Assembly: GCA_050012075.1 (NCBI GenBank)
Contig: JBEKHW010000002.1
Location: 47,518-111,517 of the forward strand
Source: Candidatus Omnitrophota bacterium
GTDB taxonomy: Bacteria > Omnitrophota > Gorgyraeia > Gygaellales > Profunditerraquicolaceae
Reading direction: 5' to 3'
DNA: 64,000 nucleotides
Under the pieces are notes generated by a model. The model searched no databases. It saw only the letters and a program-made list of their open reading frames with translations, and was not told the DNA's origin. Positions within the stretch are counted from its first letter, which is position 1, and each line of letters opens with the position of its first letter. The position numbers and the translations under genes were made by a program. Below, piece by piece: positions 23 through 47,304 of the stretch.

Positions 23-1417
23 ATGAGCATTAGCATTGGGCATTCCAATATAGGAATATTTCTGTCGCCTTCCCCTCGCGGTCCAGGGATGATTAAGTCT
101 CCTCCTCTCGACATCGCAAATTTAGTTGCCATATTGAGAAATAATGAGTCGTTCGATGTTAAGCTTATTGATTCAAGGGCCCATGTTTTAAATGAGGATT
201 CGTTTTGGGAAAGAAAAGGGATTAATTTAAGCATATTTAATGATTTCAAAAGGTGTTTCGACCATCTTCTCGTAAAGCAAGACCCGTTAATAAGTTATAC
301 CTCCATAAAAATATTATCAGAAGTAAAGCCCGAGCATATGGAATTTATGATCTTCTCTGTTGCGGTTCTTGAGCAGTTTTCTTTGCAGTATCTTATTTCA
401 TCTCTTTGTATCGCCAGGCAGATGAAGGAAAAGTATCCGGGGATAAAAATAGTTTTCTTCGGTAATTGCCCTAAGAAGCACGCGAGAAAAATTATGGGAA
501 ATTTCAGTTTCCTTGATGCTTTCCTAGAAGATGGGAATGAGTATTCTGCCTTGCAATATATTAAGAATTATAAGAGGTGCTCTCCTATAGACGGGATTAC
601 ATATAGAGAAAAAAACAGGCTAATTTATTCACGTAAAGGCAGGAAGTTAGACTTGGATAAATATCCCGTTCCAGAATTTGCCTTGTTCGATCTTAAAAAA
701 TATAAATGCAATGGGAAACTGGTATTGCCGTATGAGATAAGCAGGGGGTGCATTAATGACTGTTTTTTCTGTTATTATATTCATAAAGGCAAGATGGCCT
801 ACAAAAACATAGATAAAGTCACGGATGAATTGAAATATTTATCGCGCAAATACGATACCCAATATTTCCACTTTATGGATGCGGAAATAAATTTTGACGA
901 TGATTATCTGGGGAAGCTGTGTGGAGTCTTTAATAAAAGGTTGCCTCATATACGATGGAGTGCCTTAGCAATACCCAATATAAATAATGAGCTGCTAGTA
1001 AAAATGAGGAAAGCGGGCTGCGTTCAGTTAAGGTGGGGTGTTGAATATGCATCAGAAAGGATGCTTAAGATTATTGGTAAGAAAACAAGTGTGAAAGAGA
1101 TAAAAGAGGTTCTTAAAAATGCCCATCATCTCGGTATCTATAATTATATAACATTGCTTACTGGGCTGGGGGTTGAAAGAAAAAAGGATATTGAGGATAC
1201 CAAGGGGTTTATCAAAGGGATGAGTCCGTATATTGACTCTATTAAAGAATGCGTTTGGGGGGAACTGGGGCATTTCAGTATCTTGCGCTTGGATAACCTA
1301 TTAAACAATAAACAGGGAAAGGAAATTACCCAGCGTCAAAAATACGGGCCCACTTTAAGGGGTTGCGATATAACCTCAGAAGATATAATAGATGTTATAA
1401 CGAGATTTGGCAGCTGA
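23..1417 (+). CDS. B12-binding-domain radical SAM protein (class B-like)
   Basis: CxxxCxxC motif CINDCFFC in the middle of the protein. N-terminal region resembles a cobalamin-binding Rossmann-like domain. The frame is open to the window edge, so the true start may lie upstream. Confidence 0.65.
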   Translation: MSISIGHSNIGIFLSPSPRGPGMIKSPPLDIANLVAILRNNESFDVKLIDSRAHVLNEDSFWERKGINLSIFNDFKRCFDHLLVKQDPLISYTSIKILSEVKPEHMEFMIFSVAVLEQFSLQYLISSLCIARQMKEKYPGIKIVFFGNCPKKHARKIMGNFSFLDAFLEDGNEYSALQYIKNYKRCSPIDGITYREKNRLIYSRKGRKLDLDKYPVPEFALFDLKKYKCNGKLVLPYEISRGCINDCFFCYYIHKGKMAYKNIDKVTDELKYLSRKYDTQYFHFMDAEINFDDDYLGKLCGVFNKRLPHIRWSALAIPNINNELLVKMRKAGCVQLRWGVEYASERMLKIIGKKTSVKEIKEVLKNAHHLGIYNYITLLTGLGVERKKDIEDTKGFIKGMSPYIDSIKECVWGELGHFSILRLDNLLNNKQGKEITQRQKYGPTLRGCDITSEDIIDVITRFGS

Positions 1418-1441
1418 CCATTGTTTTTTGGGTCAGTTTTT
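1414..1441 (+). terminator. putative intrinsic terminator overlapping the stop codon
   Basis: Stem CTGACC/GGTCAG (1414-1419 and 1431-1436) with a T-rich loop, followed by TTTTT. Confidence 0.35.
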
Positions 1442-1600
1442 GCAGGCAGTCGTAGATTTCTTTGACTTTTTCCATTCTGCAGGAGAGGTGGCTTTTCCAC
1501 TCTGGCTTTCCCAAGTCAACTTCATATTTCAGCTTTAATCTTAATGCGCAAGGTTCTCTTAAAACCAGATTCTTTTGAATGGACTGCTATTCAAATTTCC
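1440..1600 (-). pseudogene. degenerate duplicated 3'-terminal fragment of the adjacent SPASM radical SAM gene
   Basis: 1516-1600 aligns at about 75% identity with 1715-1800, and 1440-1515 aligns with 1620-1714. The minus-strand translation of the copy carries several stop codons. Confidence 0.5.
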
Positions 1601-2694
1601 TATATTGACTTTTGTTCGTAATATTTCCGTAATTCTTCGCAAGCATTCTCTATTTTCAGATATTCTTTCGTGTGGTCGCAAGAGCGGCATTTTATAAATG
1701 GCGGCCTACACGAATCAAGGTCATATTTTAATTTTAATCTTAATGCATGCGCCTTTTTCGAAAACCAGATATTTTTAAGCGAATCGTTTTTCAAATTGCC
1801 GGCTTTTAATTCGGTATTTCGATGGCAGAATATAATGCTCCCATCACTTGCGACTAGAACACGAAGCCAGGCGGCGAAGCATGATTTTAACTGAGGGTCA
1901 TTGTTCTCCTTGATGCCGATGAATTCTGTAATCTCAGCTTTTACTCTATATTTGCTACAGCTTACATTTTTTATTATTTTCTTGAACGCGTTGAATTCTT
2001 TTTCGCGCAGGAGTAGTTTTTTTGTATATGGCGTCGGACCCAATGCTACAAATCTTAAGCGCGGAATATTAAGAGAATCAGCAAATTCTAACATTGCTTC
2101 TAAATAGCTGTAGTTATTCCTGGTGATTACACAGTTTAACATTATATCTGGTTTGCCTTCCGTTATGCGCAAGGCAGAAAATAATTTTAGATTTCTAATC
2201 AGGTTGTGGTACGCTTTCTTACTGGAAGGGTGACATAGTTTAGAATAAACGTTTTCATCGTGCGCGCATATGTTAACCAGCAGCTTATCCGCTTTTGCAA
2301 AGCTTAAACGTAAGAAATCTTTGTCAAAAGTAAGATTGCTATTTAGCTGTAAAAAGAATCCCTTTTCTTTTATAAAATCAATTATTTCTGTGATTTTCGG
2401 ATGTAGGGAAATTTCTCCTTCTGCGGAAAGCGTAATTGAATTTATTGAAGATAGCTCTTTTACGTCTTTAATTATCTTTTTGATGCAAGATAAAGGCAGT
2501 ATATTACGCGGCGGGTTATTATTAATCAGGGGAGAATGAACCCAACAGAATTCGCATTTTAGATTGCATATCGAATTTATCTTTATGGTGATAGCTATCG
2601 GCCCCTTGGATACTCTATCAAGAAATATATCCATCAAGGGAAGAGATCGTTTGTGATTAGGCATATCAAGTAAGATTTTTGATTTATTGACCAT
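1600..2694 (-). CDS. radical SAM protein with C-terminal SPASM-like Cys-rich domain
   Basis: N-terminal CNLKCEFC (CxxxCxxC). C-terminal extra cysteines (CFAAW, FCHRN, CRPPFIKCRSCDH) are typical of SPASM/twitch auxiliary clusters. Confidence 0.7.
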   Translation of the reverse strand: MVNKSKILLDMPNHKRSLPLMDIFLDRVSKGPIAITIKINSICNLKCEFCWVHSPLINNNPPRNILPLSCIKKIIKDVKELSSINSITLSAEGEISLHPKITEIIDFIKEKGFFLQLNSNLTFDKDFLRLSFAKADKLLVNICAHDENVYSKLCHPSSKKAYHNLIRNLKLFSALRITEGKPDIMLNCVITRNNYSYLEAMLEFADSLNIPRLRFVALGPTPYTKKLLLREKEFNAFKKIIKNVSCSKYRVKAEITEFIGIKENNDPQLKSCFAAWLRVLVASDGSIIFCHRNTELKAGNLKNDSLKNIWFSKKAHALRLKLKYDLDSCRPPFIKCRSCDHTKEYLKIENACEELRKYYEQKSI

Positions 2695-2715
2695 GTTTTA
2701 TTATATAATAAACCT

Positions 2716-3675
2716 ATGCTTTTTCAAGGGTATTACCCAAAATCTTTTTGCCGGGAATACGTAGAAGTGATGGGCGCATCTACGCAGCTGTCCATGTTTA
2801 TGGCGACTGTGCTCGGAATAAAGCCGTTAATGGATGACTGGGTGCCGGTAGCCAAGCTCAATGAGTTTAAGAAGGTTTGCAGGAAATACGGCTTGAAGAT
2901 AAGGGAAGACGTTATTTTTAAAAGCATTCCAAAAGAGAATCTTTCGCCTTCTATCCTGGGCAGGGAGTGCATCACTACTACCAGCGCTTTCGCAAGCCCG
3001 TTAAATTCCGGTAGCAGAGGACAGGTCCATTTATTCATATCCAAAAGTAATTCTCTTTTAAGGAAAGGGATGTGGTATCCTGTTATCATCAAAAACAGGG
3101 TAATCGTTCAGCCGCGGATGGACAGCCTGAGATACGGATATGTTTTGGGGTATCCTGACTGCTGCATCAAATTCTTCCGGAAATATAACAACTGGATAAA
3201 ATACAGCCATCTTTATGAAATATACAGAAATACGCATAATAAACCCTCTTTTTTGTGCAATCCGTTTCTTAAAGATACGACCTTTTCATATATATATCAT
3301 ATGCCCTGCGGCTATGATTGCACGCAAACTATAAGATTAGCCGGCAAGTTAAGGAAAGCGATAAAGAGAAGGGAACCGGCATACGTGCAATTGGCTGATA
3401 AGCATCTTAAGATGCCTTTCTTAGTTTTTTACGAAAGGAAATTTTATTGTTTTTCAGGAAAGATTAACGGCGGGCTCCTGAGCTATGATAAAGTATATTT
3501 TCCTTCACCGGATAAAGCGCAGGATGCATACGGAAAGCTCCTGGCAGAAGGCGACCGTTTGGAGCTAGAAGGCAGAAAGTTGATCGTCTACCGTAAAAAC
3601 AAAAAGATTAAGATCGCAGATATTCCTCTTAATAATTTTGCCCCTGCGTACCCATTTTTGATACAGTTCTCTTAA
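2716..3675 (+). CDS. hypothetical Cys-rich protein, divergently transcribed from the SPASM rSAM gene
   Basis: 319-aa ORF, 22 nt from the divergent rSAM start. Carries GYPDCC and HMPCGYDC cysteine motifs. No family recognised. Confidence 0.45.
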   Translation: MLFQGYYPKSFCREYVEVMGASTQLSMFMATVLGIKPLMDDWVPVAKLNEFKKVCRKYGLKIREDVIFKSIPKENLSPSILGRECITTTSAFASPLNSGSRGQVHLFISKSNSLLRKGMWYPVIIKNRVIVQPRMDSLRYGYVLGYPDCCIKFFRKYNNWIKYSHLYEIYRNTHNKPSFLCNPFLKDTTFSYIYHMPCGYDCTQTIRLAGKLRKAIKRREPAYVQLADKHLKMPFLVFYERKFYCFSGKINGGLLSYDKVYFPSPDKAQDAYGKLLAEGDRLELEGRKLIVYRKNKKIKIADIPLNNFAPAYPFLIQFS

Positions 3676-3680
3676 AGACC

Positions 3681-5771
3681 ATGAAGATTTTACATATTAG
3701 TTGCAATAAATACCATCCCTGCCTATGGCGGATGATTAAGGTGCAGGCAAGGAATAACGATGTTTCTTTATTCCTGCTGAATTTTGGAGAATATAACAGT
3801 ACCTCGATAGGCAAAAAATATAATGAAGATGGTGTCCAATTTGTGGAAATAGATACGAAAAAAGCAGTGATTTATAATCAGGATAGCTCTTTAGAGGATG
3901 TTTTCCGTGATTTATTAAGAATATATAATCCCGATGTCATCCATATCCATGTTTTTTCAGGAATCAACCTTTTTTCTCTACTGGCTGTATCCTGTAGCCT
4001 GGAAATAAAGAAAGCGCTGACTTTGCATGACCATTCTCTTTTCTGTATCCGTGGCACAATGCATGATGGCCGCGGTGTATGCAGTATGGATTCATTTATG
4101 CAATGCTCATGCAGCACCAATCAGTATCATGCGAAGGCGAAAGACAGATCACCGAAGGAATTCAATCTTTATCGGGAAGAGCTATCCAGAAGGGTAGTTA
4201 ATATGTGCGATAAAATAATCTGTTGTTCTGATGCGCAAAAAGAAAAACTCGAGCAGCTATTCGGAAAAAATGAAAAATTTGTTACTCTTTACTACGGCGT
4301 AGGGTTGCCTAAAGTTCATAAGCGAATAAAGAAAAAGTCAGGTATAGCTACCTTCGGCTTTCTTGGTAATTTAGCTTCTTTAAAGGGTATAGAGATATTA
4401 GAAGAGGCGGTGCCTAAGCTATCGCAGCATAAATTCAGGTTGCTGATGGCTATACACTATCGAGATGATGCTCCTGACAAAAATGAATACTTAAAAAGGC
4501 TGCAGAAGTGTAATAACATAGAGTTGCTGCATAATGTTGAGTATAACGAGCTTTATACCAGGTTTTTCAGCCAAATCGACTGGTTAATTATTCCTTCTCT
4601 TTGGGAGGAGACCGGGCCGATGACCCTTTTTGAGGCATTTTTTTATAAAGTGCCGGTTATAATTTCCAATCGTAAAAGTATGGTTGAGAAGATCCGGGGT
4701 AACAGGAACTCCAGGGTCTTCAAAAATACCGATATGTTGGTAAGAATAATGAAGGGGATCATCTCGCGCAGAATCAGGAAAAAGATGCCCGATTCATTCA
4801 AGGCAAAGGGCATCAAGACCTATGCGAATGAAATCATAGCTTTGTATAGAGAGCTTCTTGTAAAAGAAGAAAAAACCCTTGTCCTGAAGACCGGTTATTT
4901 ATGTAATAATAACTGTATTTTCTGCGTAACCGGAGACAATACCCCGCGGGAATTCGTGAATTTCAGCTTCCTGGTAAAAACGCTGGAGAAATACAGGGGG
5001 CTTTATGAGAGGGTTACGCTTACCGGGGGCGAGCCGCTTTCACGGAAAGATATTCTTAATATCCTGGAATTCTGTTATAGGCTCGGATATAAGATCACCC
5101 TGCAGACCAATGCCAGGCAATTTGCCGATAAGGATTTCTGCCGGAGCATAAAATATTTAAACTTGGATATCATCACGCACCTGGAAAGCTACAAACCGAA
5201 GATACACGATGTAATTACCAGGGTACAAGGGAGTTTTTATGAGACGGTAAGCGCCATAGTTAATTTAAGGCAATATTGCGCGAGCATATCGGTAAAGATA
5301 ATGATGACAAGCTTGAATTACAGGCATATTCCAACTACCGCGCGCTGGCTAAAGAAATTAAAAGTGGATGAGGTATGGTTTGTTTACCTGACTCCCTACG
5401 GCCACGCGTTTACTTATTTTGATTTGATAACCCCGCATTATTCCGAAGTAAAGCCGTATATACGCCAGGCCGTGGAGCTGCTCGGAGGAAATAAAGGTCC
5501 CAAGATAGCCGTAGAGGGAGTCCCTTTTTGTTGCGTAAACGGGGGAATAAGAAAACTTATTCTTGATAAAAAGCAGGCGGACCAATATTGTAGATGCGGC
5601 GTATATCCTGCCGCTTCCGGAGAAAGCCGGTACTATTGCTTTCCGGAGAGGGAGAAGCAGAAACAGAAGTTTGGGCGGTGTAAGCTTTGTAAATTCGACA
5701 GCATATGCGAAGGCGTTTACGCAAGGTATGTAGAAAAAATGGGGGAGAGGGAATTTAATCCGGTGTTTTGA
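3681..5771 (+). CDS. fusion protein: N-terminal GT4-like glycosyltransferase plus C-terminal radical SAM/SPASM-like domain
   Basis: Residues about 1-400 have the GT-B/GT4 signature EETGPMTLFEAFFYKVPVI. Residues about 400-696 carry CNNNCIFC (CxxxCxxC), a GGEPL SAM-binding motif and a C-terminal Cys cluster (CCVNGG, CRCG, CKLCKFDSIC). Confidence 0.7.
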   Translation: MKILHISCNKYHPCLWRMIKVQARNNDVSLFLLNFGEYNSTSIGKKYNEDGVQFVEIDTKKAVIYNQDSSLEDVFRDLLRIYNPDVIHIHVFSGINLFSLLAVSCSLEIKKALTLHDHSLFCIRGTMHDGRGVCSMDSFMQCSCSTNQYHAKAKDRSPKEFNLYREELSRRVVNMCDKIICCSDAQKEKLEQLFGKNEKFVTLYYGVGLPKVHKRIKKKSGIATFGFLGNLASLKGIEILEEAVPKLSQHKFRLLMAIHYRDDAPDKNEYLKRLQKCNNIELLHNVEYNELYTRFFSQIDWLIIPSLWEETGPMTLFEAFFYKVPVIISNRKSMVEKIRGNRNSRVFKNTDMLVRIMKGIISRRIRKKMPDSFKAKGIKTYANEIIALYRELLVKEEKTLVLKTGYLCNNNCIFCVTGDNTPREFVNFSFLVKTLEKYRGLYERVTLTGGEPLSRKDILNILEFCYRLGYKITLQTNARQFADKDFCRSIKYLNLDIITHLESYKPKIHDVITRVQGSFYETVSAIVNLRQYCASISVKIMMTSLNYRHIPTTARWLKKLKVDEVWFVYLTPYGHAFTYFDLITPHYSEVKPYIRQAVELLGGNKGPKIAVEGVPFCCVNGGIRKLILDKKQADQYCRCGVYPAASGESRYYCFPEREKQKQKFGRCKLCKFDSICEGVYARYVEKMGEREFNPVF

Positions 5772-5787
5772 AGAGCGGAGGTTAGGG

Positions 5788-6249
5788 TTGCTGAAAAAAG
5801 TAGAGGATGATTTTACCGCAATATTAGGATTTAAGCCTTTGCATCGAGCCAATAAACTGAATGATTTTAGCGTGAGGAAGGATGTCATATTTACACTTCT
5901 TGCCGAAAAGATATTTGATAATCCCCGCTTGTTAGACCTCTTGTTGAAAAAGATAAAATATTGGCTGGTAGTTGAAAAGAGCGAACTTACTTATGCTATT
6001 GCCGGGTATGTTTATTACATTAAAGAAGATTTTACACAAGCAGAAAAATATTTCTTGAAAGCCCTGAATAAGAACAGGCAAAATTTAGATAACTGGTTCG
6101 ACCTTGCATTTAGCCTTTATCATCAGGAAGACGGCAAACACAAGCTGGCAAAAATAATTCTTTTTAATTTTGACTATTGCGCCAAGAAACTTAAGAATGC
6201 AACGGTAAACCTGAAAAGAATAGAGAAGGCCTTGAATAGCCGTGTCTAG
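5788..6249 (+). CDS. hypothetical protein, TPR-like helical repeats
   Basis: TTG start 7 nt after a GGAGG. TPR-like pattern AEKYFLKALNKN...WFDLAFSLY. Confidence 0.4.
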   Translation: MLKKVEDDFTAILGFKPLHRANKLNDFSVRKDVIFTLLAEKIFDNPRLLDLLLKKIKYWLVVEKSELTYAIAGYVYYIKEDFTQAEKYFLKALNKNRQNLDNWFDLAFSLYHQEDGKHKLAKIILFNFDYCAKKLKNATVNLKRIEKALNSRV

Positions 6250-6466: not shown

Positions 6467-6850
6467 ATGAACAGAAAAGGTTTTACGCTAGTTGAAATCA
6501 TGATTGTCGTTGCGATTATCGCTCTGTTGGCAGCTATTGCCATACCCAATCTTCTTTCAGCAAGAAGGACCGCGAATGAATCTGCGGCAAAGGCATCGAT
6601 ACGTAGCATTTCTACCGCAGCTGAAACATACGCTACTTCTCATAGCGGTGCGTATCCTACTGATGTAACTGCCTTGGCAGAGTTTATTACTACTGCTCCT
6701 AGCTATTGCGGCCAGGCCGTACAAGGTTATAACTATACTTGTACATTAAGTTCAGGCGGATATACTATTGTTGCAGCGCCGGTTACTCCTGGCACGACAG
6801 GAAATATAACCTGGACAGCTACTACAGGTGCAGCACTCACTCCACTGTAA
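6467..6850 (+). CDS. prepilin-type N-terminal cleavage/methylation domain pilin
   Basis: MNRKGFTLVEIMIVVAIIALLAAIAIPN is a classic G|FTLxE class III signal. RBS GGGGGG upstream. Confidence 0.8.
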   Translation: MNRKGFTLVEIMIVVAIIALLAAIAIPNLLSARRTANESAAKASIRSISTAAETYATSHSGAYPTDVTALAEFITTAPSYCGQAVQGYNYTCTLSSGGYTIVAAPVTPGTTGNITWTATTGAALTPL

Positions 6851-6871
6851 CAAGATATTTTGTACTTTAGT

Positions 6872-6908
6872 AAAAAAGGGGAAAGAGGTTCATTCTTTCC
6901 CCTTTTTG
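6872..6908 (+). terminator. rho-independent terminator
   Basis: Perfect 12-bp stem AAAGGGGAAAGA/TCTTTCCCCTTT with a 7-nt loop, then TTG. Confidence 0.6.
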
Positions 6909-6916
6909 TTTAACCT

Positions 6917-8893
6917 ATGATACTTAAAAAAAGAACATATTTTCTTATTTTTATTTTGATCTTTTTCTCAGTGCTGTCCGTGTATTCCAATACCCTGCGT
7001 AATCCTTTTATATGGGATGATAACGCGATTATTGTGCATAACAGCCTGATCCAGGACTGGCATCTATTGGGAAAGGCGTTTACGAGTGATCTCTTCTATG
7101 GCGTAGCTTCCGGCTCAAATTTTTACCGGCCGCTACAGACAATTTCTTATATGTCGGATTATTACTTCTGGGGCCTTAAGCCGTTAGGGTATCATATTAC
7201 TAATATACTTCTGCAGGCCGCACTTTCTTTTTTGGTCTTTATTTTTCTTTTTATGCTGTCTGGCAGAGCGGAAATCTCTTTTTTTAGTGCGCTTCTTTTT
7301 GCGGTAAACCCCCTGCACACAGAATCAGTGACTTACCTTTCCGGACGCGCCGAGATGCTGATGGGGATTTTCTTGCTGACATCATTTATCTTTTTTGTCA
7401 AGGGGCAAAATTGCCGGAAGAATTACCGTTTGCCGCTTTATTTATTATCAGTGGTAGCGTTCATTCTTGGTTTATTATCGAAAGAACTGGCAGTGGTTTT
7501 TCCGCTGGCCATACTTGCCTATCTTTTTTATTTTAGGAAATCTAACAAGGCAGCGATATCCTGGAAAACATCTCCATTTTTTGTTATTTCACTGGTTTAC
7601 GTTTTATTAAGGCTCACCTTGTTAAAGTTCCCTACTTTTAGGCCACCGACTTTGGCAGGCGTCCCGTTTCTTTTTAGGATGTCGGTTTTATTCAAAGCGC
7701 TGTTTATGCAGGCCAAGCTCCTGATTTTGCCGGTTAATCTGCATATGTCTTATCAATTAGTAATGCCGACGACTTTTTTAGGGATTTTCTTATCCTGGTT
7801 TATTTCAGGTGTGGTTGTAGTTTTTGCTGCATATATTTTACGCAATAAAAAGAAAAATGCCCTCTTCTGTTTTTTATTTTCCTGGTATCTGATTTTTCTT
7901 CTTCCGCAGTCAGGGATTTTGCCTATCAATGCCTTTTTTGCTGAACACTTTCTATATTTGTCTTCGATAAGTTTTCTTACAGGAGTTTTATTAATTTTAC
8001 AACGGTATTTAAAGAAACCATTATTTTTGTTTTCTTTTGTTTGTCTTTTTGCCGCTTACGGCGTCCTTACTTACGCCCGTAATCTTGAATGGTCTAGCCC
8101 CCTTGCATTCTTCCAGGGGATAGTGAAACTATCGCCTGGAAGCTTTCAGGGATACAATAACCTGGGTTTAGAATACGAAAAGAACGGGGATTATCAAAAA
8201 GCGATATCCTGTTACAAAAGGGCGTTACAGATAATGCCTGAACTTTTGGATGCGCACTTTAACCTGGCTAACCTCTATTTTAAGACCGGAAAATTAAAAG
8301 AAGCGCTGGATGAATACTCTGTTATTGAAAAGACTCACCCTGGAGATAAATCAGGGCAGGTGCAGAATAATATCGGTAATGTATTGGAGGCTCAAGGGTT
8401 ACCGCAGGCGGCCATAAAAAGATACAAGATAGCCTTGCAACTGGATAAAAACCTCTATTATGCCCATTTTAATCTCGCGCGTATCTATATGGGGCAGGGA
8501 AAAACCGGATCATCTGTTGAAGAGATAGTTGTTTCTCTGGGGTTACAGGTAGATAATGCAGAGACAGACGGGGTTATCATCCGGCAGATAATTACCCGTT
8601 TTCTTGAAGAGAAAAAAATGTTAAATTCCGCGGATATTTTTTATAATAATCTGGGAGCAAAATTAGCAGGAAGCGGAATTTTTTATGCGGCAGCTTCTGC
8701 TTTTAAGAGGGCGCTGGAGATCGAGCCGGCTTATGAAGATGCGCATTTTAATCTCGCTCTTAGTTACCTGAAGATGGGGATGAGGAATAGGGCAGTTTCG
8801 CAATTAAACTCTTTGCTCAAGATAGATCCGCAGCATCATCGCGCCAGGAGCCTTTTACTGGAGATAAAGAAAAATGTTAGCCGCAGTCAATAA
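6917..8893 (+). CDS. TMTC-like GT-C membrane glycosyltransferase with C-terminal TPR repeats
   Basis: N-terminal polytopic domain with FIWDD in the first loop, a DD motif typical of GT-C. C-terminal multiple TPR repeats (LGLEYEKNGDYQKAISCYKRAL...). Confidence 0.55.
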   Translation: MILKKRTYFLIFILIFFSVLSVYSNTLRNPFIWDDNAIIVHNSLIQDWHLLGKAFTSDLFYGVASGSNFYRPLQTISYMSDYYFWGLKPLGYHITNILLQAALSFLVFIFLFMLSGRAEISFFSALLFAVNPLHTESVTYLSGRAEMLMGIFLLTSFIFFVKGQNCRKNYRLPLYLLSVVAFILGLLSKELAVVFPLAILAYLFYFRKSNKAAISWKTSPFFVISLVYVLLRLTLLKFPTFRPPTLAGVPFLFRMSVLFKALFMQAKLLILPVNLHMSYQLVMPTTFLGIFLSWFISGVVVVFAAYILRNKKKNALFCFLFSWYLIFLLPQSGILPINAFFAEHFLYLSSISFLTGVLLILQRYLKKPLFLFSFVCLFAAYGVLTYARNLEWSSPLAFFQGIVKLSPGSFQGYNNLGLEYEKNGDYQKAISCYKRALQIMPELLDAHFNLANLYFKTGKLKEALDEYSVIEKTHPGDKSGQVQNNIGNVLEAQGLPQAAIKRYKIALQLDKNLYYAHFNLARIYMGQGKTGSSVEEIVVSLGLQVDNAETDGVIIRQIITRFLEEKKMLNSADIFYNNLGAKLAGSGIFYAAASAFKRALEIEPAYEDAHFNLALSYLKMGMRNRAVSQLNSLLKIDPQHHRARSLLLEIKKNVSRSQ

Positions 8894-8914
8894 TTTTTGT
8901 TATAATTCTTACCT

Positions 8915-9364
8915 ATGAAATCGAACAATAAAAACAAAGCTTTTACGTTAGTAGAGATTATGACGGTAATGGCAATCGTGGCGCTGTTAGTCTCTATGGC
9001 AGTCATAGAAACAGCTAAATTCAGAAGACAAGCAAATGAATCTACCTGTCAGGCTAACCTCAAGGCGATTGCTTCCGGTTTTGAGGTGTACGCGGCCCGT
9101 AACGCCCTGTCATATGCGCCTGAAGAACAGACTAACCTGCAGTTCTTAGTGGACAGCGGTTGTCTTAACCAGGACCTTACCGCAATGCCGCAGCTGGGTA
9201 ATTTCCGTTACACAGTAGCCGAAGTCGGCCCCGCTGGTTATGATATCAGGGCAATCGCGCTAAATTCAGCTTTGGCAGCGCATAATTATCAGGTTATTAC
9301 CGGCGGCACATTAAAAAGGACCGACAGTCCAGACCCTTCCGATTCCGATTTTAAGACTTTTTAA
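8915..9364 (+). CDS. prepilin-type pilin (Ala at -1)
   Basis: MKSNNKNKAFTLVEIMTVMAIVALLVSMA: FTLVE with Glu at +5. Confidence 0.7.
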   Translation: MKSNNKNKAFTLVEIMTVMAIVALLVSMAVIETAKFRRQANESTCQANLKAIASGFEVYAARNALSYAPEEQTNLQFLVDSGCLNQDLTAMPQLGNFRYTVAEVGPAGYDIRAIALNSALAAHNYQVITGGTLKRTDSPDPSDSDFKTF

Positions 9365-9387
9365 ACATAGTGTTATAGGTAGGAAAT

Positions 9388-31620: not shown

Positions 31621-32666
31621 TCCTCATAACCGGTTCATGCGGCCTTATTGGTTCGCAAACTGCGGGTTTTTTTGCCGAGAAAGGGTTTGACATAGCCGGA
31701 ATAGATAACGATATGCGAAAGTACTTTTTCGGTAAAGATGGCAGTATCGTCGGTAATAAAAAACGGCTGCTAAAAAAATATAAGAACTATAAACATTTTG
31801 ATGCCGATATAAGAGATGACGGCAGGATAGATAAGATATTCAGGAAATTTTCAAAAGATATACTTTTGATAGTGCATACCGCAGCTCAACCTTCCCATGA
31901 CTGGGCTGCAAGAGAGCCGAAGACGGATTTTAGCGTAAATGCCTGCGCTACTTTAATAATGCTTGAGGCGTTCAGGAAGCATTGCCCCAAGGCAGCATTT
32001 ATATTTACCTCGACGAACAAGGTGTACGGTGACCTGCCGAACACTCTGCCTCTGGTAGAACTGGAGAAACGCTATGAATTGCCGCAGGGCCACAGGTATT
32101 ATAGAGGCATAGATGAGTCAATGAGTGTTGATAACTGTTTGCACAGTCTTTTCGGCGCATCAAAACTGGCTGCCGATATCCTGGCTCAGGAATACGGAAG
32201 GTATTTTGGCCTCTCTACCGCCATCTTCCGGGGCGGCTGCCTTACAGGTCCGGCGCATTCCGGTGTCGAGCTTCATGGATTTCTTTCATATCTTGTAAAA
32301 TGCTGCGTTAGCGGGAAAATTTATAAAATATACGGCTACAAGGGCAAGCAGGTCAGGGATAATATCCATTCATATGACCTGGTGAATGCCTTTTATCATT
32401 TCTTTAAGGCGCCAAGGACCGGGGAAGTATACAATATAGGTGGCGGCAGATTCGCCAATGTTTCTATATTAGAGGCAATTGATATATGCCAAAGGATCTC
32501 CGGAAAAAAGTTCAGCTATGAATACACGGATAAAAACAGGGTAGGCGACCATATCTGGTGGATAAGCGATGTCTCCAAATTCAAATCGCATTATCCCCAG
32601 TGGCAGTATAAGTACGGTATCGAAGATACTATGCGCCAAATATACGATGCCCAAAATGAAGCCTAA
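31611..32666 (+). CDS. NAD-dependent epimerase/dehydratase (CDP-paratose 2-epimerase-like)
   Basis: [13 protein letters not shown]ossmann fold and [11 protein letters not shown] (YxxxK). About 350 aa with an extended N-terminal insertion, as in CDP-tyvelose/paratose epimerases. Confidence 0.6.
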
Positions 32667-34482
32667 TTACATATTAGGAATATCGGCTTTTTACCATGAT
32701 AGCGCAGCCGCGTTGATTAAGGATGGAGAAATAATGGCTGCTGTCCAGGAAGAACGCTTTAGCCGCAGGAAACATGATCCAGGGTTTCCTGTTAATGCGG
32801 TAAACTGGTGCCTGAAAGAAAACGCCATTACCGCGCAGGACCTTGATTACGTAGTATTCTACGATAAACCCTTCATAAAATTAGAAAGAATATTGGAAAC
32901 CGCTATGCGTTTTGCCCCTTCAGGAATAACCCAATTCATGCAATCAGTGCCTGTATGGTTAAAGGAGAAAATATGGGTCAGGGATATCATCTCAAAGAGT
33001 TTAGGTTACAAAGGAGAGATTCTTTTCTGTGAGCATCATGAATCTCATGCGGCCTCGGCATTTTATCCTTCTCCTTTTGAAGAGGCGGCGTTTTTGACTA
33101 TAGACGGCGTGGGGGAATGGGATACAGCCAGTTTTGGAATAGGTAAAGGCAGGGAACTCAAAATCCAGCATTCTTTGAGATTCCCGCACTCTCTTGGCCT
33201 GCTTTATTCAGCGTTCACATATTATACCGGTTTCAAAGTGAATTCCGGGGAATATAAATTAATGGGGCTTGCGCCATTTGGTGAGCCGGTTTATAAGGAT
33301 TTGATACTGAACGAACTGTTGGATTTAAAAGAAGATGGTTCTTTCCGGCTGAATATGAAATATTTTGGATTCTGCAATGGCCTCAGGATGACAAATCTGC
33401 GGTTTGATAAACTTTTTGGCACAAAGCCTAGAAAGCCGGAAACAAAAATCAGGCAGATAGATATGGATTTGGCCAGCTCTATCCAGCAGGTAACCGAAGA
33501 GATAATGTTACGGATCGCCCGCCATGTATATAAAGTTACCGGAAAAAACAAACTTTGTTTAGCAGGCGGCGTAGCCTTAAACTGTGTCGCAAACGGCAGG
33601 ATTTTACGCGAAGGGCCGTTTGAGGATATCTGGATACAGCCTGCCAGCGGAGATGCGGGAGGGGCATTGGGCGCGGCCCTGGCAATATGGCACAGGTATC
33701 TTGGCAAGGAGAGAAAGATTGCTTCAGCCGGGGATTCATTAAAAGGTTCATTTCTTGGCCCGGCGTTCACCGATGACGAGATAGAGGAATTCCTGAAAAA
33801 AGAGAAGGTTCCTTATGAACATATTGAAAGAGAAAGGCTGGTGGATTCTACTGCGGAGTTGATTGAAAAGCAGCATGTAATCGGCTGGTTTCAGGGCCGC
33901 ATGGAATTCGGCCCGCGCGCATTGGGGGCCCGTAGTATCATAGGAGATGCCAGGAACCCGAAAATGCAATCCAGGATGAACCTTAAGATTAAATTCCGGG
34001 AATCCTTTCGGCCTTTTGCCCCGACTGTTTTAAGAGAGCATACCTCAGAGTGGTTTGCGTTAGATAGAGCAAGCCCCTATATGCTGCTTACTGCCCCGGT
34101 GAAAAAAGAAAAAAGGCTGGAAGAGCAAAAAGAGAAAGAGGGGCCCAGAGGCCTGGATAAGTTAAAGATTTTCCGTTCGCCTATACCAGCAGTTACCCAT
34201 GTAGATTATTCCGCAAGGATACAGACCATAGAGCGCCGGGATAACGGGATTTACTATGATCTGGTCAGCGCTTTTTATAGAAGGACCGGCTGCCCCGTAA
34301 TTATTAATACTTCTTTTAATATACGAGGGGAGCCGATTGTCTGTACCCCGGAAGAGGCGTTCCGTTGTTTTATGCGTACGGATATGGATTATTTGGTTAT
34401 AGGCTCATTCCTGCTTGATAAAAGTAAGCAGAGGCTTTTAAATGAGAAAATCAGGCCGCTGGAATACCAGGAGCTGGATTGA
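32647..34482 (+). CDS. carbamoyltransferase (NodU/CmcH family)
   Basis: [21 protein letters not shown]ae1/YgjD-like N-terminal domain plus a C-terminal carbamoyltransferase domain. Start chosen at an internal ATG overlapping the upstream stop. Confidence 0.8.
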
Positions 34483-43413: not shown

Positions 43414-45222
43414 ATGATAAAAGTTACAGATTATATAGCAAAACGGCTTGCCGATAGTGGAATCAGGCATATTTTTATGTTGACCGGCGGCGGGGCTATG
43501 CATCTTAATAATTCATTGGGGAAGGATAAATATCTCAAATGTGTTTTTAATCATCACGAACAGGCCTGCGCTATTGCTGCAGAGGGTTATGCCAGGATAT
43601 CCGCTAAGCTAGGAGTAGTTAATGTTACTTCCGGGCCAGGGGGATTAAATACTTTGACCGGAGTTATGGGGCAGTGGACCGATTCAGTACCCGTGTTATA
43701 TATATCCGGTCAGGTCAAACTCGAAACAAGTATCTCTTCTTGTCCTGATATCGGATTACGGCAGCTTGGCGACCAGGAAGTGGATATCGTCAACATAGTA
43801 AAGCCGATAACAAAATTCGCGATTATGGTTAAAAATCCTAACGAGATAAAAAGAATACTTGATAAAGCTATATACATAGCTACGCATGGCCGGCCCGGAC
43901 CGGTATGGATTGATTTGCCTCTTGATGTTCAGGGAGCCGTGGTTGATGAGAGTAAAATGCTAGGGTATGATAAAAAAGAGGCCGCCATATTTAATGATGC
44001 CGATCTCCTGACTAAAGTGCCGCAAGTAATTAAGTTGATTAAGGCATCGCATCGTCCGGTCATTTTAGCCGGATATGGTATCCGCATTGCGAATGCGCAG
44101 GAATTATTCCTGGAACTGGTAAATAAATTGAAGGTGCCGGTTTTATCTACCTTTAACGGCCAGGACCTTATAGCAAGCAATCATCCTTGTTTCATAGGAA
44201 GAATAGGTACCCAGGGAGACAGGGCGGGTAATTTTGCCCTTCAAAATTCAGATCTGTTATTATCAATTGGCTCACGAAATAATATCAGGCAGGTTAGTTA
44301 TAATTGGAAAACTTTTGCCCGGGAAGCTAAAAAAGTAGTAGTTGATATAGACCCTGCAGAGTTACAGAAAAGCACTTTAATCCCTGATATCGCAGTACAT
44401 TCTGATGCCAGGTATTTCCTGGAAAATATGTCCAAAGTTTTAGAAAAAACCGGTCTGCCAGGATGGAATAAGTGGTTACGCTGGTGCATTGAGAGAAAAA
44501 ATAAATATCCCGTGGTTATTCCTAAGTACAAAAAATCCAAGAAAATCAATCCGTATTATTTTATCAATCTTTTAAGCGAATGCATAAAAGAAAGAACTGT
44601 TGTCGTTACCGGAAATGGCACGGCAAGTGTATGCTATTTCCAGGCCGCCATGGTTAAGAAGGGGCAGAGGATTATAATGAATTCCGGTTGCGCGGCTATG
44701 GGGTATGATTTACCGGCTGCGATAGGCGCTTGTTTTGCCAGTAGCAAAAAAGATATTATTTGTATTACAGGAGATGGCAGCATCCAGCTGAATATCCAGG
44801 AGCTACAGACTATAATCCATCATAAACTGCCGATAAAAATATTTGTTTTAAATAATGACGGGTATATTTCCATAAGGCAGACTCAAAAGAGTTTTTTTGG
44901 TTTACCGTATGTAGGCTCCGGCAGAACGTCTGGATTGAGTCTTCCCGATATGGGCAAGATCGCAAAGGCTTATGGCATAAAATCATACACTATCGATAAA
45001 AATCACGGCATAAGGATAAAGATAAAACGCATACTTGATTGCAGGGGTCCGGTTATCTGTGAAGTAAAACTCGACGATAACTATAAATTCATGCCGAAAT
45101 TATCTTCAGAAAGAAAGCCGGATGGAAGAATTGTTTCTAAGCCTATTGAGGATATGTCCCCATTTTTAGAGCGAAAAGAATTTAAGGGCAATATGCTCGT
45201 ACCGCTGTATCGGGAGAAATAA
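43414..45222 (+). CDS. thiamine diphosphate-dependent enzyme (acetolactate synthase large subunit-like; YerE-like candidate)
   Basis: The three ThDP-enzyme domains, with the ThDP-binding GDGS...NNDGY motif near the C-terminus. Confidence 0.75.
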   Translation: MIKVTDYIAKRLADSGIRHIFMLTGGGAMHLNNSLGKDKYLKCVFNHHEQACAIAAEGYARISAKLGVVNVTSGPGGLNTLTGVMGQWTDSVPVLYISGQVKLETSISSCPDIGLRQLGDQEVDIVNIVKPITKFAIMVKNPNEIKRILDKAIYIATHGRPGPVWIDLPLDVQGAVVDESKMLGYDKKEAAIFNDADLLTKVPQVIKLIKASHRPVILAGYGIRIANAQELFLELVNKLKVPVLSTFNGQDLIASNHPCFIGRIGTQGDRAGNFALQNSDLLLSIGSRNNIRQVSYNWKTFAREAKKVVVDIDPAELQKSTLIPDIAVHSDARYFLENMSKVLEKTGLPGWNKWLRWCIERKNKYPVVIPKYKKSKKINPYYFINLLSECIKERTVVVTGNGTASVCYFQAAMVKKGQRIIMNSGCAAMGYDLPAAIGACFASSKKDIICITGDGSIQLNIQELQTIIHHKLPIKIFVLNNDGYISIRQTQKSFFGLPYVGSGRTSGLSLPDMGKIAKAYGIKSYTIDKNHGIRIKIKRILDCRGPVICEVKLDDNYKFMPKLSSERKPDGRIVSKPIEDMSPFLERKEFKGNMLVPLYREK

Positions 45223-45295: not shown

Positions 45296-46606
45296 ATGGA
45301 AAAAGCCAAACAATTAAAAAGGGAAATATTTAAGAATGTAGCAAAGTTCTATAAAGCGAATAAGCAAAAGGATAGGTTTATTCCGGGAAAGACCCACATA
45401 AATTATGGAGGAAGGGTCTTTGATGAAGAAGAAATAATAAATCTCGTTGATTCTGCTCTTGAATTCTGGCTGACCGCCGGCAGGTACGCCCATGACTTTG
45501 AAGAAAAATTAGCTAAGTTTATAGGGGTAAAGTACGGTATCCTCACTAATTCCGGCTCATCGGCAACCCTTTTAGCTATATCGAGCCTGACTTCACCGCT
45601 ATTAAAGGAACGAAGGCTTAAGCCGGGGGACGAAGTCATCACTACTGCCTGTGGTTTTCCCACGACACTTAACCCTATATTACAGAACAATCTGGTTCCG
45701 GTTTTTGTTGATGTGGATTTGGGGACTTATAATATTCAGGTGCATAAAATTGAAAAGGCGATATCCAATAAGACAAAAGCAATCTTTATTGCCCATACCT
45801 TGGGTAACCCCGTAGATCTGGATCAGATTGCGAAGGTTGTGAACAAACATAAACTCTGGTTTTGCGAAGACAACTGTGATAGTCTGGGCTCAAAATATAA
45901 AGATAAATATACAGGAAACTTCGGGGATATTTCCACCTGCAGTTTTTATCCGCCCCATCATATCACTATGGGAGAGGGCGGGGCTGTTTTGACCAGCGAC
46001 CCGCTATTGAAGAAAATAATTATTTCTTTTCGTGATTGGGGAAGGGATTGTTATTGCGAAACAGGGAGCGATAATACCTGCAAAAAAAGGTTTAACCAGA
46101 AATTCGGAGATTTGCCTTATGGCTATGACCATAAATACGTGTATTCGCATATAGGTTATAATTTAAAAGTTACCGATATGCAGGCAGCTATAGGAGCGGC
46201 GCAATTAAAGAAATTACCGGGGTTTATTGAGGCGAGAAAGAAGAACTTTAAATTCCTCTATAATGTTTTTCAAAAATATGAGGATTGTTTTATACTTCCG
46301 CAGGCAGAGAAATATTCCGATCCAAGCTGGTTTGGTTTCCCGGTTTTAGTAAAAGACACAGCCCCATTTAATAGGGCGGATATCACTAGTTATCTGGAGG
46401 AGCATAAGATTGCTACAAGAATGCTTTTTGGCGGGAATTTATTAAAGCAGCCAGCTTATAAAAACATAAAGCACAGGGTAGTAGGAGATTTAAGAAATAC
46501 TGATTTAGTTATGAATAATCTGTTTTGGATAGGAGTTTATCCGGGGCTTACAAAGCCGATGCTATCTTATGTGGAGAGGATTTTACATAATTTCTTCAGA
46601 AAATGA
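45296..46606 (+). CDS. rfbH: CDP-6-deoxy-L-threo-D-glycero-4-hexulose-3-dehydrase (E1, DegT family)
   Basis: DegT-family N-terminus FWLTAGRYAHDFEEKLAKFIGVKYGILTNSGSSA. 436 aa. Cys spacing C-X57-C-X1-C-X7-C (..DNC...RDCYCETGSDNTC) is consistent with the E1 [2Fe-2S] motif. Confidence 0.7.
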   Translation: MEKAKQLKREIFKNVAKFYKANKQKDRFIPGKTHINYGGRVFDEEEIINLVDSALEFWLTAGRYAHDFEEKLAKFIGVKYGILTNSGSSATLLAISSLTSPLLKERRLKPGDEVITTACGFPTTLNPILQNNLVPVFVDVDLGTYNIQVHKIEKAISNKTKAIFIAHTLGNPVDLDQIAKVVNKHKLWFCEDNCDSLGSKYKDKYTGNFGDISTCSFYPPHHITMGEGGAVLTSDPLLKKIIISFRDWGRDCYCETGSDNTCKKRFNQKFGDLPYGYDHKYVYSHIGYNLKVTDMQAAIGAAQLKKLPGFIEARKKNFKFLYNVFQKYEDCFILPQAEKYSDPSWFGFPVLVKDTAPFNRADITSYLEEHKIATRMLFGGNLLKQPAYKNIKHRVVGDLRNTDLVMNNLFWIGVYPGLTKPMLSYVERILHNFFRK

Positions 46607-47304
46607 ATACGAAACTGACGATTATTATAGGCTGTTTTAATGAAAAACCTACCATCTTAAAAGCTATTGAAGAAGCCAAGGCATTAAAGATTGATAAGGA
46701 AATAATTGTTATAGATAACGGCTCAACCGACGGCACTAAAGAAATATTAGAAAGTTTGAAGGATGATAAGTCGCTTAAAATAGTTTTTCATTCCAGAAAT
46801 ATGGGTGCTGGATATAGCGCATGCGAAGGAGTTTATCTTGCTAAAGGTGCCTACCATTATGGCCCCGGAGCCGACCTAGAATATAAAATGGATGATGTTT
46901 ATAAGATGATAGATAAAATGGAGAAAGAAGATTTAGATGTTGTATTCGGCTCAAGGCTGGCAGATAGAAAGAATGTCTCTCGTATTGCCTTGATTAAGGA
47001 AAGGCCATATTGGCTTGGGTCTATCATCGCGACGTCTTTAATAAATATATTATACCGTAAGAATTTTACCGATATTATAGGTACAAACCTGATCAAAACC
47101 AGTGTTTTAAAGGAAATTAACTGTAAAGATTGCAGTCAGGCTTTTGCATTTGAGTTGGTAAGTAAGCTTTGTAAGGGCAGGTATAGAATCGGGGAAATCC
47201 CCGTTTATTACAAGCCCCGGACACATAAAGAAGGAAAAACCATACGAGTTTTTGATATGATCCCGGCACTTTTGGCGATCTTAAAGGTGAAGATTTTTGG
47301 TTGA
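46603..47304 (+). CDS. glycosyltransferase family 2
   Basis: IIIGCFNE...IIVIDNGSTDGT. Confidence 0.7.
   Translation: MNTKLTIIIGCFNEKPTILKAIEEAKALKIDKEIIVIDNGSTDGTKEILESLKDDKSLKIVFHSRNMGAGYSACEGVYLAKGAYHYGPGADLEYKMDDVYKMIDKMEKEDLDVVFGSRLADRKNVSRIALIKERPYWLGSIIATSLINILYRKNFTDIIGTNLIKTSVLKEINCKDCSQAFAFELVSKLCKGRYRIGEIPVYYKPRTHKEGKTIRVFDMIPALLAILKVKIFG

Follow-up and report, generated by a model that had tools for sequence, protein, structure and literature searches.

The analysed window is a stretch of 64 kb from a Candidatus Omnitrophota bacterium (assembly GCA_050012075.1, contig JBEKHW010000002.1, positions 47,518 to 111,517), and it opens with five genes (g1 to g5; Table 1) that a first-pass annotation had described as a compact 6-kb cluster with three radical S-adenosylmethionine (rSAM) enzymes. 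The five open reading frames (ORFs) and the three enzymes were found as described: g1, g2 and g4 match the Pfam family Radical_SAM (PF04055) with 64.7, 41.6 and 54.4 bits, respectively, and carry the CxxxCxxC motif. A contig with an identical g1 (L001; 87.7 kb, ENA) added 10 kb that could be read upstream of the window; metagenome and GTDB loci are labelled here L001, L006 and so on, and fusion proteins P0201, P0291 and so on. Since L001 contains nine more genes directly upstream of g1, all co-directional, separated by short gaps or overlapping, and four of them coding for rSAM enzymes (u3, u4, u8 and u9), the cluster is neither compact nor confined to 6 kb and three rSAM enzymes. The start of g1 overlaps the stop of u9 (L001 10001 versus 10011), and g1 is the last gene of a co-directional operon of about 11 kb, most of it outside the window. 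In total, seven rSAM domains (g1, g2, g4, u3, u4, u8 and u9), each with the CxxxCxxC motif and a PF04055 match, lie within about 16 kb; no further one was detected in the window or in the 10 kb upstream. The five window genes are thus the middle of an island of at least 21 kb that is cut by the window start. Downstream, the unit probably reaches to at least 10929, since homologues of the genes d2 and d4 adjoin g3 or g5 in other loci. Gene content also places the upstream operon in the same unit as g3 to g5, since locus L039 recombines the same kinds of genes: five class-B-like rSAM enzymes, a DegT aminotransferase, g3, g5 and a pair of Peptidase_U32 (U32) genes stand together there in a different order. 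U32 pairs were also seen in L007 and L012; L005, L013 and L053 have AsnB-like genes. Riboswitches and other RNA families, promoters and terminators were either not found or not above chance.

Comparison among loci points to a conserved core consisting of the HxsC-like rSAM domain of g4, together with g3 and g5. Around g3 homologues, 79 further metagenome loci were collected, and the 24 that were non-redundant and had enough flanking sequence (well-covered loci) were used for counting. In these, g5 directly follows g3 in 16 of 24 and lies within a few genes of it in 19 of 24; an HxsC-like rSAM gene of about 300 codons is placed directly upstream of g3 in 12; and each locus holds between 0 and 9 rSAM genes (median 4). 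The order g3-g4-g5 was found in L006, L011, L013, L032 and L014, the last being the complete genome of Ca. Velamenicoccus archaeovorus LiM (NZ_CP019384, at about 902,100-906,700). Moreover, three independent domain fusions connect the members of the trio: GT4-rSAM (g4 itself), rSAM-DUF483, and DUF483-g5 (P0201). At least seven proteins join an HxsC-type rSAM domain to DUF483 (P0291, P0300, P0308, P0338, P0340, P0345 and P0348), some of them named Aenigmarchaeota and one with two DUF483 copies. Gene order across dozens of loci and these three fusions together link the three proteins.

The annotation of g4 as a fusion of a family GT4 glycosyltransferase and an rSAM enzyme was borne out by its Pfam domains (Glyco_transf_4 and Glycos_transf_1, followed by Radical_SAM), and the GT-B fold and EX7E motif of the N-terminal half likewise assign it to GT4. 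About 30 full-length GT4-rSAM homologues share 38-61% identity with g4; three have a named source, Omnitrophica in each case. In some loci, the GT4 and rSAM parts are encoded by two genes next to each other. The EX7E motif, the rSAM cysteines C408, C412 and C415, the GGEP motif, and C617, C667, C670 and C676 (C-terminal CxxCx5C) are invariant in 25 aligned homologues. Another four cysteines (C122, C134, C142 and C144) are invariant in 25/25 homologues and are located at residues 118-144, in an insertion of the GT4 N-domain beside a conserved HDHSLFC; this insertion may be a Zn or Fe-S site, which would be atypical of GT4 enzymes. The structure model of the whole protein reached a predicted local distance difference test (pLDDT) of 90 and a predicted template modelling score (pTM) of 0.89. 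The top families for the rSAM domain were HxsC4 (NF038332; 116.8 bits against a cutoff of 500) and HxsC (TIGR03977; 94.8 bits against 267.9), the next family scoring 65 bits. The domain aligns end to end with the DUF483-fused rSAM domains (130-170 bits) and has the C-terminal motif in common with them, and HxsC4 and HxsC are also their best families (up to 218 bits against a cutoff of 268).

Protein g3 had been described as Cys-rich and of unknown family. It does contain nine cysteines, of which four are invariant and three nearly invariant in homologues; a family can, however, be named, since residues 124-207 match DUF483 (PF04467), albeit marginally (27.0 bits, cutoff 25), and the PF04467 call is precomputed for several of its homologues. 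A search at E<=0.001 gave 158 homologues, 120 of which were listed; these have 44-77% identity and, where named, are nearly all Omnitrophica. Protein g3 is well folded and has no solved structural relative. A g3-like domain also occurs in fusion with a peptide beta-hydroxylase domain of the aKG-HExxH type (113 bits against a cutoff of 40). The description of g5 as similar to tetratricopeptide repeat (TPR) proteins was stronger than the data warrant, its best match of this kind (TPR_2, 21.2 bits) falling below the cutoff of 27. Its family occurs in 34 loci and is the most widely shared small protein; when the small ORFs of about 90 loci were clustered all-against-all, only g5 was shared.

The nature of the partners of this module is most evident in 12 related loci, in which it is part of operons with His-x-Ser precursors. 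These operons contain HxsB, HxsD-like proteins, a protein of 73-85 amino acids with an 'LNYLIY' motif (five loci) and precursors of about 80-140 amino acids. HxsB exceeds its curated cutoff of 370 in L026 (387.8) and L081 (464.6), the HxsD-like proteins reach 33-36 bits against a cutoff of 50, and the precursors fall slightly short of the cutoffs of the curated models HxsA3 and HxsA4. In L081, the rSAM enzyme encoded directly upstream of g3, in an operon with HxsB, scores 123 and 94 bits, equal to the rSAM domain of g4. In the precursors, a charged and conserved N-terminal region (K.F..DEEG.ISK) is followed by a ...K.G element, a short Gly-rich hydrophobic segment and a His/Ser-rich tail with 2-20 HxS motifs, in which the last residue is usually aromatic (...HSSY, ...HGSY, ...NSW). 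A membrane protein of about 290-365 amino acids with an AGDAKLF motif is encoded directly after g5 in about 10 loci and near it in others (30 ORF matches). In L053, it matches Peptidase_A24 with 28.0 bits (cutoff 26.5), the others being below the threshold, and its sequence features identify it as a putative divergent type-IV-leader peptidase (a GxGD membrane protease). The adjacency of this A24-like peptidase and the pattern of ...K.G plus hydrophobic segment suggest that the His-x-Ser precursors are class-III-signal, that is, pilin-like, proteins. In L031 and L047, genes for glycosyltransferases (PMT_2 GT-C, GT2 and GT4) are located between or beside g3 and g5; L004 has a PMT gene beside the GT4-rSAM gene. 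In at least six Omnitrophota loci, including that of Ca. Velamenicoccus archaeovorus LiM, g3 and g5 are directly upstream of pgk-tpiA-secG. This suggests that it is their ancestral chromosomal position, which the pilin locus takes in the window. Seven related loci showed a further feature: their Hxs-type operons are opened by a gene for a secreted protein of 107-193 amino acids with the motif ...T(I/L)TTYYPAPYG.Y... just past the signal peptide. No NCBIfam model matches this family, which may act as a structural partner or as a second substrate.

None of the five proteins g1 to g5 reaches the cutoff of any NCBIfam model, and Protein Data Bank sequence relatives of g1, g2 and g4 are limited to PqqE, at E 6e-4 for g2. 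The best families for g1 are ApyD, rSAM_ocin_1, BzaD, BchE and HpnJ, with 78-92 bits against cutoffs of 282-750, and g1 is paralogous to the upstream u3 and u9 (109-127 bits). The B12-binding domain that had been assigned to g1 could not be confirmed: PF02310 gave no Pfam match at E<=1 in g1, u3 or u9, the likeness of g1 to class B enzymes lies far below the cutoffs, and the domain is present only in u8 (42.2 bits, cutoff 32.1), which is best matched by the uncharacterised family TIGR04190. The classification of g2 as a SPASM-type enzyme is correct (PF13186, 40.6 bits over residues 272-330, cutoff 21.5), its top NCBIfam family being a tungsten-cofactor maturase (85 bits against 380). L006 and L043 have genes similar to g2 that are divergent from g3 and just upstream of it; in L031 and L087, such genes lie 2-3 ORFs from a g3 copy, on the opposite strand. 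As for u4, it scores 119.5 bits with PapB (NF047865), too far below the cutoff of 340 to be counted as a PapB protein, and 67.3 bits with HxsB (TIGR03978; cutoff 370), the N-terminal 85 or so residues of which are missing.

The remaining genes of the upstream operon code for other kinds of enzymes. The AsnB-like u1 belongs to a family with the N-terminus MLRIFG in place of MCG. Cys2 is thus replaced by Leu across the family, which therefore has no glutaminase nucleophile; the SGGWDT PP-loop is kept in most members, including this one. It would be an adenylating enzyme of the amidation or lactam-forming type, and it gave a weak match to the lasso-cyclase model NF033535 (45.2 bits, cutoff 525). 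The gene is split into a 511-aa ORF and a 49-aa ORF in another frame, homologues having 560-585 amino acids. A sequencing error, a frameshift or a premature stop would account for this split, and an NCBI record has a similarly shortened product of 491 amino acids. The 49-aa ORF was considered as a precursor and rejected: full-length AsnB-like homologues align with it over their residues 523-564 (40% identity, E 5e-8), which identifies it by sequence as the split-off C-terminus. Some U32 proteins, UbiU/V and TrhP among them, are O2-independent hydroxylases, and the UbiU/V and TrhP families are the sole NCBIfam matches of u5. The DegT protein (315 bits) resembles sugar aminotransferases of the PseC, WecE and LegC type.

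Downstream of g5 come a pilin gene, d2, a second pilin gene, d4, a UbiA prenyltransferase gene, a third pilin-like ORF and genes for PilM, PilN and a secretin, so that the cluster is indeed located directly upstream of a pilin locus, as first noted. This layout (6467-16755) resembles pilin O-glycosylation loci such as those of TfpW and TfpO. Homologues of d2 that cover its membrane domain (264-270 bits) follow g5 and the A24-like peptidase gene in L081 and L082, where they close the Hxs-type operons, and a weaker one (80 bits) was found in L080. A relationship of d2 with PMT_2 was considered and not supported (hhalign probability 2.7%). By contrast, d4, which has no direct Pfam match, is homologous to PMT_2 (PF13231-type) proteins (hhalign probability 99.7%, E 2.9e-25, 320 columns). 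A full-length homologue of d4 (372 bits) is encoded directly after g3 in L031, followed by PMT_2, GT2, g5 and GT4 genes. A weaker relative comes after g5 in L013/L032 (29 bits, phmmer); the L013 sequence had entered the d4 profile that was compared with PMT_2. Sequence comparison thus makes d2 and d4 probable members of the unit, and the link between the island and the pilins rests on their homologues and not on the pilins themselves. The pilin at 6467-6850 is a candidate substrate or a mere neighbour.

Table 1. Genes of the island and its surroundings, and features of related loci. Positions refer to the window unless a locus label is given.
Feature	Positions	Strand	Description
g1	23-1417	+	rSAM enzyme, 464 aa, class-B-like
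g2	1600-2694	-	rSAM/SPASM enzyme, 364 aa; divergent from g3, gap 21 bp
g3	2716-3675	+	DUF483-like protein, 319 aa; conserved partner of HxsC-type rSAM domains
g4, whole	3681-5771	+	GT4-rSAM fusion
g4, N-terminal half	3681-4808	+	GT4 (GT-B fold) glycosyltransferase domain
g4, C-terminal half	4863-5771	+	HxsC-like rSAM domain, C-terminal CxxCx5C motif
g5	5788-6249	+	Small helical protein, 153 aa, weakly TPR-like; obligate neighbour of g3
Pilin-like protein 1 (type IV)	6467-6850	+	127 aa; prepilin motif; N_methyl 35.3 bits; GspG, PilA, ComGC-type matches
d2	6917-8893	+	Polytopic membrane protein, C-terminal TPR repeats, 658 aa
Pilin-like protein 2	8915-9364	+	149 aa; prepilin motif; N_methyl 30.5 bits
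d4	9388-10929	+	Predicted PMT_2-like GT-C glycosyltransferase, 513 aa, membrane protein
UbiA prenyltransferase	10974-11819	-	
Third pilin-like ORF	11981-12397		Without prepilin motif
PilM	12430-13443		
PilN	13447-14052		
Secretin	15019-16755		
Carbamoyltransferase	32569-34482		
Thiamine pyrophosphate (TPP) enzyme	43414-45222		
Second DegT	45296-46606		
GT2 genes	46603-47304 and 53416-54120		
696-aa ORF	47318-49408		No Pfam match
GT87-type GT-C enzyme	54107-55354		
u1, AsnB-like	L001 107-1642	as g1	511-aa ORF
49-aa ORF	L001 1681-1830	as g1	Matches AsnB-like C-terminus
u3	L001 1844-3268	as g1	Class-B-like rSAM
u4	L001 3276-4349	as g1	PapB/HxsB-like rSAM
u5	L001 4383-5186	as g1	Peptidase_U32 protein
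U32 partner	L001 5217-6014	as g1	265 aa
DegT aminotransferase	L001 6038-7132	as g1	315 bits
u8	L001 7136-8515	as g1	rSAM with Pfam B12-binding domain
u9	L001 8536-10011	as g1	Class-B-like rSAM
A24-like peptidase (examples)	L028 11402-12286; L053 11459-12370; L081 8684-9643		Also in about 20 other loci
g3-g5 beside pgk-tpiA-secG	L014 13729-16164; L026 11493-13828; L028 14235-16655		Also L043, L045, L062
YYPAPYG-family genes	L007 7013-7525; L026 437-1018; L038 100-531; L047 5046-5369; L080 2342-2713; L081 3105-3665		

The arrangement had been reported as matching no described pathway, and this holds: the curated NCBIfam rSAM families are missed widely, PADLOC defence models gave no specific match (generic viperin-type rSAM similarity and weak matches to the candidate model PDC-M51A), and the literature searches yielded no paper on DUF483, on GT4-rSAM fusions or on Omnitrophota rSAM islands. 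By analogy, the locus would work most like the HXS system. HxsABCD is an rSAM-matured periplasmic anti-phage effector system, and in E. coli HxsC binds the small protein HxsD and, together with HxsB, matures HxsA, one of the changes being +8 Da at an SHRSS motif (PMC13128918). The likeness lies in the HxsC4 and HxsC families being the best ones for the rSAM domain of g4, with the same scores as rSAM enzymes beside g3 in operons with HxsB and HxsA3/A4-like precursors, and in the presence of an accessory protein beside the HxsC-type enzyme (HxsD there, g3 as proposed here). NCBIfam already curates small-precursor variants of Hxs proteins (HxsA3, HxsA4, HxsC4 and HxsD_rel). However, since all four defining components fail here (HxsA, HxsB and HxsD are absent, and the rSAM domain of g4 scores far below the HxsC cutoffs), the window locus is not a member of HXS. 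It differs as well in the fusion of the HxsC-like domain to GT4, in its partners, a DUF483-like and a helical protein found in no described Hxs system, in having five or six more rSAM enzymes, the AsnB-like protein, the U32 pair and DegT, and in being a phylum-wide Omnitrophota module syntenic with pgk-tpiA-secG, whereas published HXS systems have four genes and are 99.7% proteobacterial. In the literature found, the DUF483-like partner, g5, the GT4 fusion, the link with a leader peptidase and PMT, the many rSAM enzymes per locus and the Omnitrophota-wide spread are all undescribed.

Other known systems resemble parts of the island. rSAM/SPASM maturases of peptides that are ribosomally synthesised and modified post-translationally (RiPPs), such as the ranthipeptide enzyme PapB, SkfB, SuiB and anSME, and class B methyltransferases (ApyD, rSAM_ocin_1) rank first or nearly first among the sequence and structural neighbours of u4, g2, g1, u3 and the rSAM domain of g4; however, scores are far below cutoffs, the island has no precursor or recognition domain, and a B12-binding domain only in u8. 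Mycofactocin differs in that its glycosyltransferase MftF, a GT2 protein, is a separate enzyme and not a fused GT4 domain, in an MftC model score of about 33 bits, and in MftA, MftB, MftD and MftE, equivalents of which the island lacks; what it has in common is the rSAM modification of a ribosomal peptide combined with glycosylation (PMC7491314). The island is also unlike serine-rich-repeat adhesin loci with the GT4 enzyme GtfA(-GtfB), since GtfA is not among the closest GT4 neighbours of g4 and there is no GtfB-like partner. The pilin O-glycosylation loci of P. aeruginosa (TfpO/PilO, and TfpW beside pilA) are alike in layout, with pilins interleaved with the GT-C-type d4 and UbiA adjacent; rSAM enzymes are not known from these systems. 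Arabinosylation of the TfpW type uses a polyprenyl-linked donor (10.1101/2020.04.19.049825).

Based on this set of comparisons, we propose that the island serves the radical tailoring and glycosylation of an exported, pilin-like, ribosomally made protein, an explanation to which we give an even chance and for which any named substrate is only a candidate. We infer the class of substrate, the roles of g3 and g5 and each chemical step from gene content, conservation, fusions and family similarities. The first-pass annotation had leaned towards a lipid or glycan substrate rather than a ribosomal one. A protein is favoured since elsewhere the core, including the type of rSAM domain seen in g4, occurs together with HxsB, HxsD-like proteins and His-x-Ser precursors, and its g3 domain is fused to a peptide hydroxylase; matches to lipid families are negligible. 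On the other hand, its suggestion of a glycosylated product remains plausible, with the GT4 catalytic motif invariant and DegT and PMT-like enzymes associated. In the proposed mechanism, the module would act in the cytoplasm on a ribosomally made protein bound for export. By analogy with HxsD and HxsC in E. coli, g3 with g5 would hold or present the substrate; with the help of both, the rSAM domain of g4 would modify this substrate covalently, and the fused GT4 domain would attach a sugar to it. Protein g2, the four class-B-like rSAM enzymes, u4, the AsnB-like protein, the U32 pair (which may hydroxylate without oxygen) and DegT would tailor the protein or its sugar, and GT-C enzymes would then glycosylate at the outer face.

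Several results weigh against this proposal. A repeat scan and two hidden Markov models (HMMs) detected no His-x-Ser precursor in the 64-kb window or L001, in agreement with the earlier statement that the region holds no short precursor ORF. No HxsD-like protein was found in the six-frame translations of the window and L001 when queried with proteins of related loci, and neither HxsB nor an A24-like peptidase was found in the window or the 10 kb upstream. Precursor, HxsB, HxsD and A24-like peptidase are likewise absent from other loci with g3, GT4-rSAM and g5 (L006, L011, L013/L032 and L014/L045/L051). Among the well-covered g3 loci, a His-x-Ser precursor was found in 9-10 of 24 (about 40%), and in L027 g3 and g5 occur with no rSAM gene nearby. 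Judged by the prepilin motif, adjacency of pilins to the module is not conserved across loci. DegT and GT4, together with the carbamoyltransferase and YdjC of related loci, point to sugar chemistry. Since the locus has no His-x-Ser precursor, HxsB, HxsD or peptidase, the candidate substrate would be one of the pilin-like proteins just downstream or a protein encoded elsewhere.

The main rival explanation places the chemistry on a sugar: the rSAM enzymes, DegT, the AsnB-like protein and the U32 pair would build an unusual sugar with many modifications (methylated, aminated, amidated, hydroxylated) on a nucleotide or polyprenyl phosphate, which the GT4 and GT-C enzymes would attach to pilins or a surface polymer, no rSAM enzyme touching protein. 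The strong DegT match with its likeness to sugar aminotransferases fits such a pathway, as do the PMT_2-like d4, the adjacent UbiA prenyltransferase and the content of L004 (a carbamoyltransferase, YdjC, two DegT genes and PMT), and glycosylation of pilins by GT-C enzymes encoded beside pilA has a precedent in TfpW (10.1101/2020.04.19.049825). However, the cluster contains no nucleotidyltransferase, 4,6-dehydratase or other nucleotide-sugar entry enzyme, five of the seven rSAM domains best match peptide or protein maturases (ApyD, PapB and HxsC4; g2 and u8 do otherwise), and g3, its rSAM enzyme and g5 keep company with HxsB, HxsD-like proteins, His-x-Ser precursors and the peptide hydroxylase fusion; we regard this explanation as unlikely, though a serious one. 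Lipids fare far worse. That membrane lipids, for instance membrane-spanning or hopanoid-type ones, are methylated or cross-linked and then glycosylated is very improbable: scores with lipid families are far below cutoffs and no better than those with peptide families, the island has no lipid-synthesis genes, the rSAM lipid genes reported from Omnitrophota are homologues of Hbs and Mss and not these, and the fusion and neighbourhood evidence all points to proteins.

Two other explanations keep a ribosomal substrate and are also less likely. A glycosylated small peptide, either a secreted RiPP antibiotic or signal or a redox cofactor of the mycofactocin kind, with its precursor outside the region read, would be consistent with the PapB-, ApyD- and rSAM_ocin-like best matches and with the weak lasso-cyclase match of the AsnB-like protein. 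Many of the related precursors also end in an aromatic residue, recalling the C-terminal Tyr of the mycofactocin precursor, and mycofactocin pairs an rSAM enzyme with a glycosyltransferase (PMC7491314). Nevertheless, we consider it improbable: neither a precursor nor a recognisable RiPP recognition domain was found in the cluster, the MftC and PqqE models score 33-47 bits, and related precursors with a hydrophobic segment and a membrane leader peptidase fit an anchored or exported protein better. An anti-phage defence like that of HXS, in which a matured envelope protein blocks phage DNA entry as in Proteobacteria, appears no more probable than the small peptide. It is suggested by the HxsABCD systems, the only relatives studied experimentally and a defence system (PMC13128918), and pilus glycosylation is also described as protective against phages (10.1101/150227). 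Against it stand the absence of HxsA, HxsB and HxsD from the window and the 10 kb upstream, the lack of a specific PADLOC match and the restriction of 99.7% of HXS systems, with four genes, to Pseudomonadota (PMC13128918). Moreover, g3 and g5 are phylum-wide (listed homologues 44-77% identical) and adjoin pgk-tpiA-secG in at least six loci, which suggests vertical inheritance and not a mobile defence island.

Extending the proposal of a tailored and glycosylated pilin-like protein to the phylum leads to a more speculative picture, possible but doubtful as a whole: a vertically inherited Omnitrophota pathway, as yet undescribed, in which short pilin-like proteins with His/Ser-rich tails would undergo radical modification and glycosylation by a module of DUF483, HxsC-like rSAM and helical protein, a locus having as many as nine rSAM genes. 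Its product would be a surface filament or envelope protein of an undescribed kind, cross-linked post-translationally, glycosylated and possibly metal-binding, and the window locus would be a variant re-targeted to canonical type IV pilins. Hxs-type maturation would widen from a four-gene proteobacterial defence to large, phylum-wide islands with leader peptidases and protein glycosyltransferases. Omnitrophota are ultra-small bacteria (nanobacteria), partly predatory or epibiotic and attached to other cells, and if they devote a pathway to the heavy modification of surface or pilus proteins, this would be directly relevant to how they make cell contact. Independently of this picture, a single island concentrates seven rSAM domains, a family of GT4-rSAM fusions and a well-folded protein with no solved relative, none of them at the curated cutoff of an NCBIfam rSAM family. 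From the comparative data, a testable role follows for DUF483 and the g5 family, namely partnership with HxsC-type radical enzymes, and the His-x-Ser precursors of related loci, of about 100 amino acids, make HxsC-type chemistry directly testable.

Two further observations concern the source of some loci and the rest of the window. The contigs L008, L009, L010 and L012, which carry GT4-rSAM genes of the Omnitrophota type, are labelled as metagenome-assembled genomes of Methanosarcinales, Planctomycetia or Nanoarchaeota. The gene order of L009 is that of the V. archaeovorus locus (phmmer map); these labels are likely to come from mis-binning of an epibiont with its host. Finally, a second glycan-type gene set was found in the window at 32569-55354, with a carbamoyltransferase, a TPP enzyme, a second DegT, two GT2 genes, a 696-aa ORF and a GT87-type GT-C enzyme.

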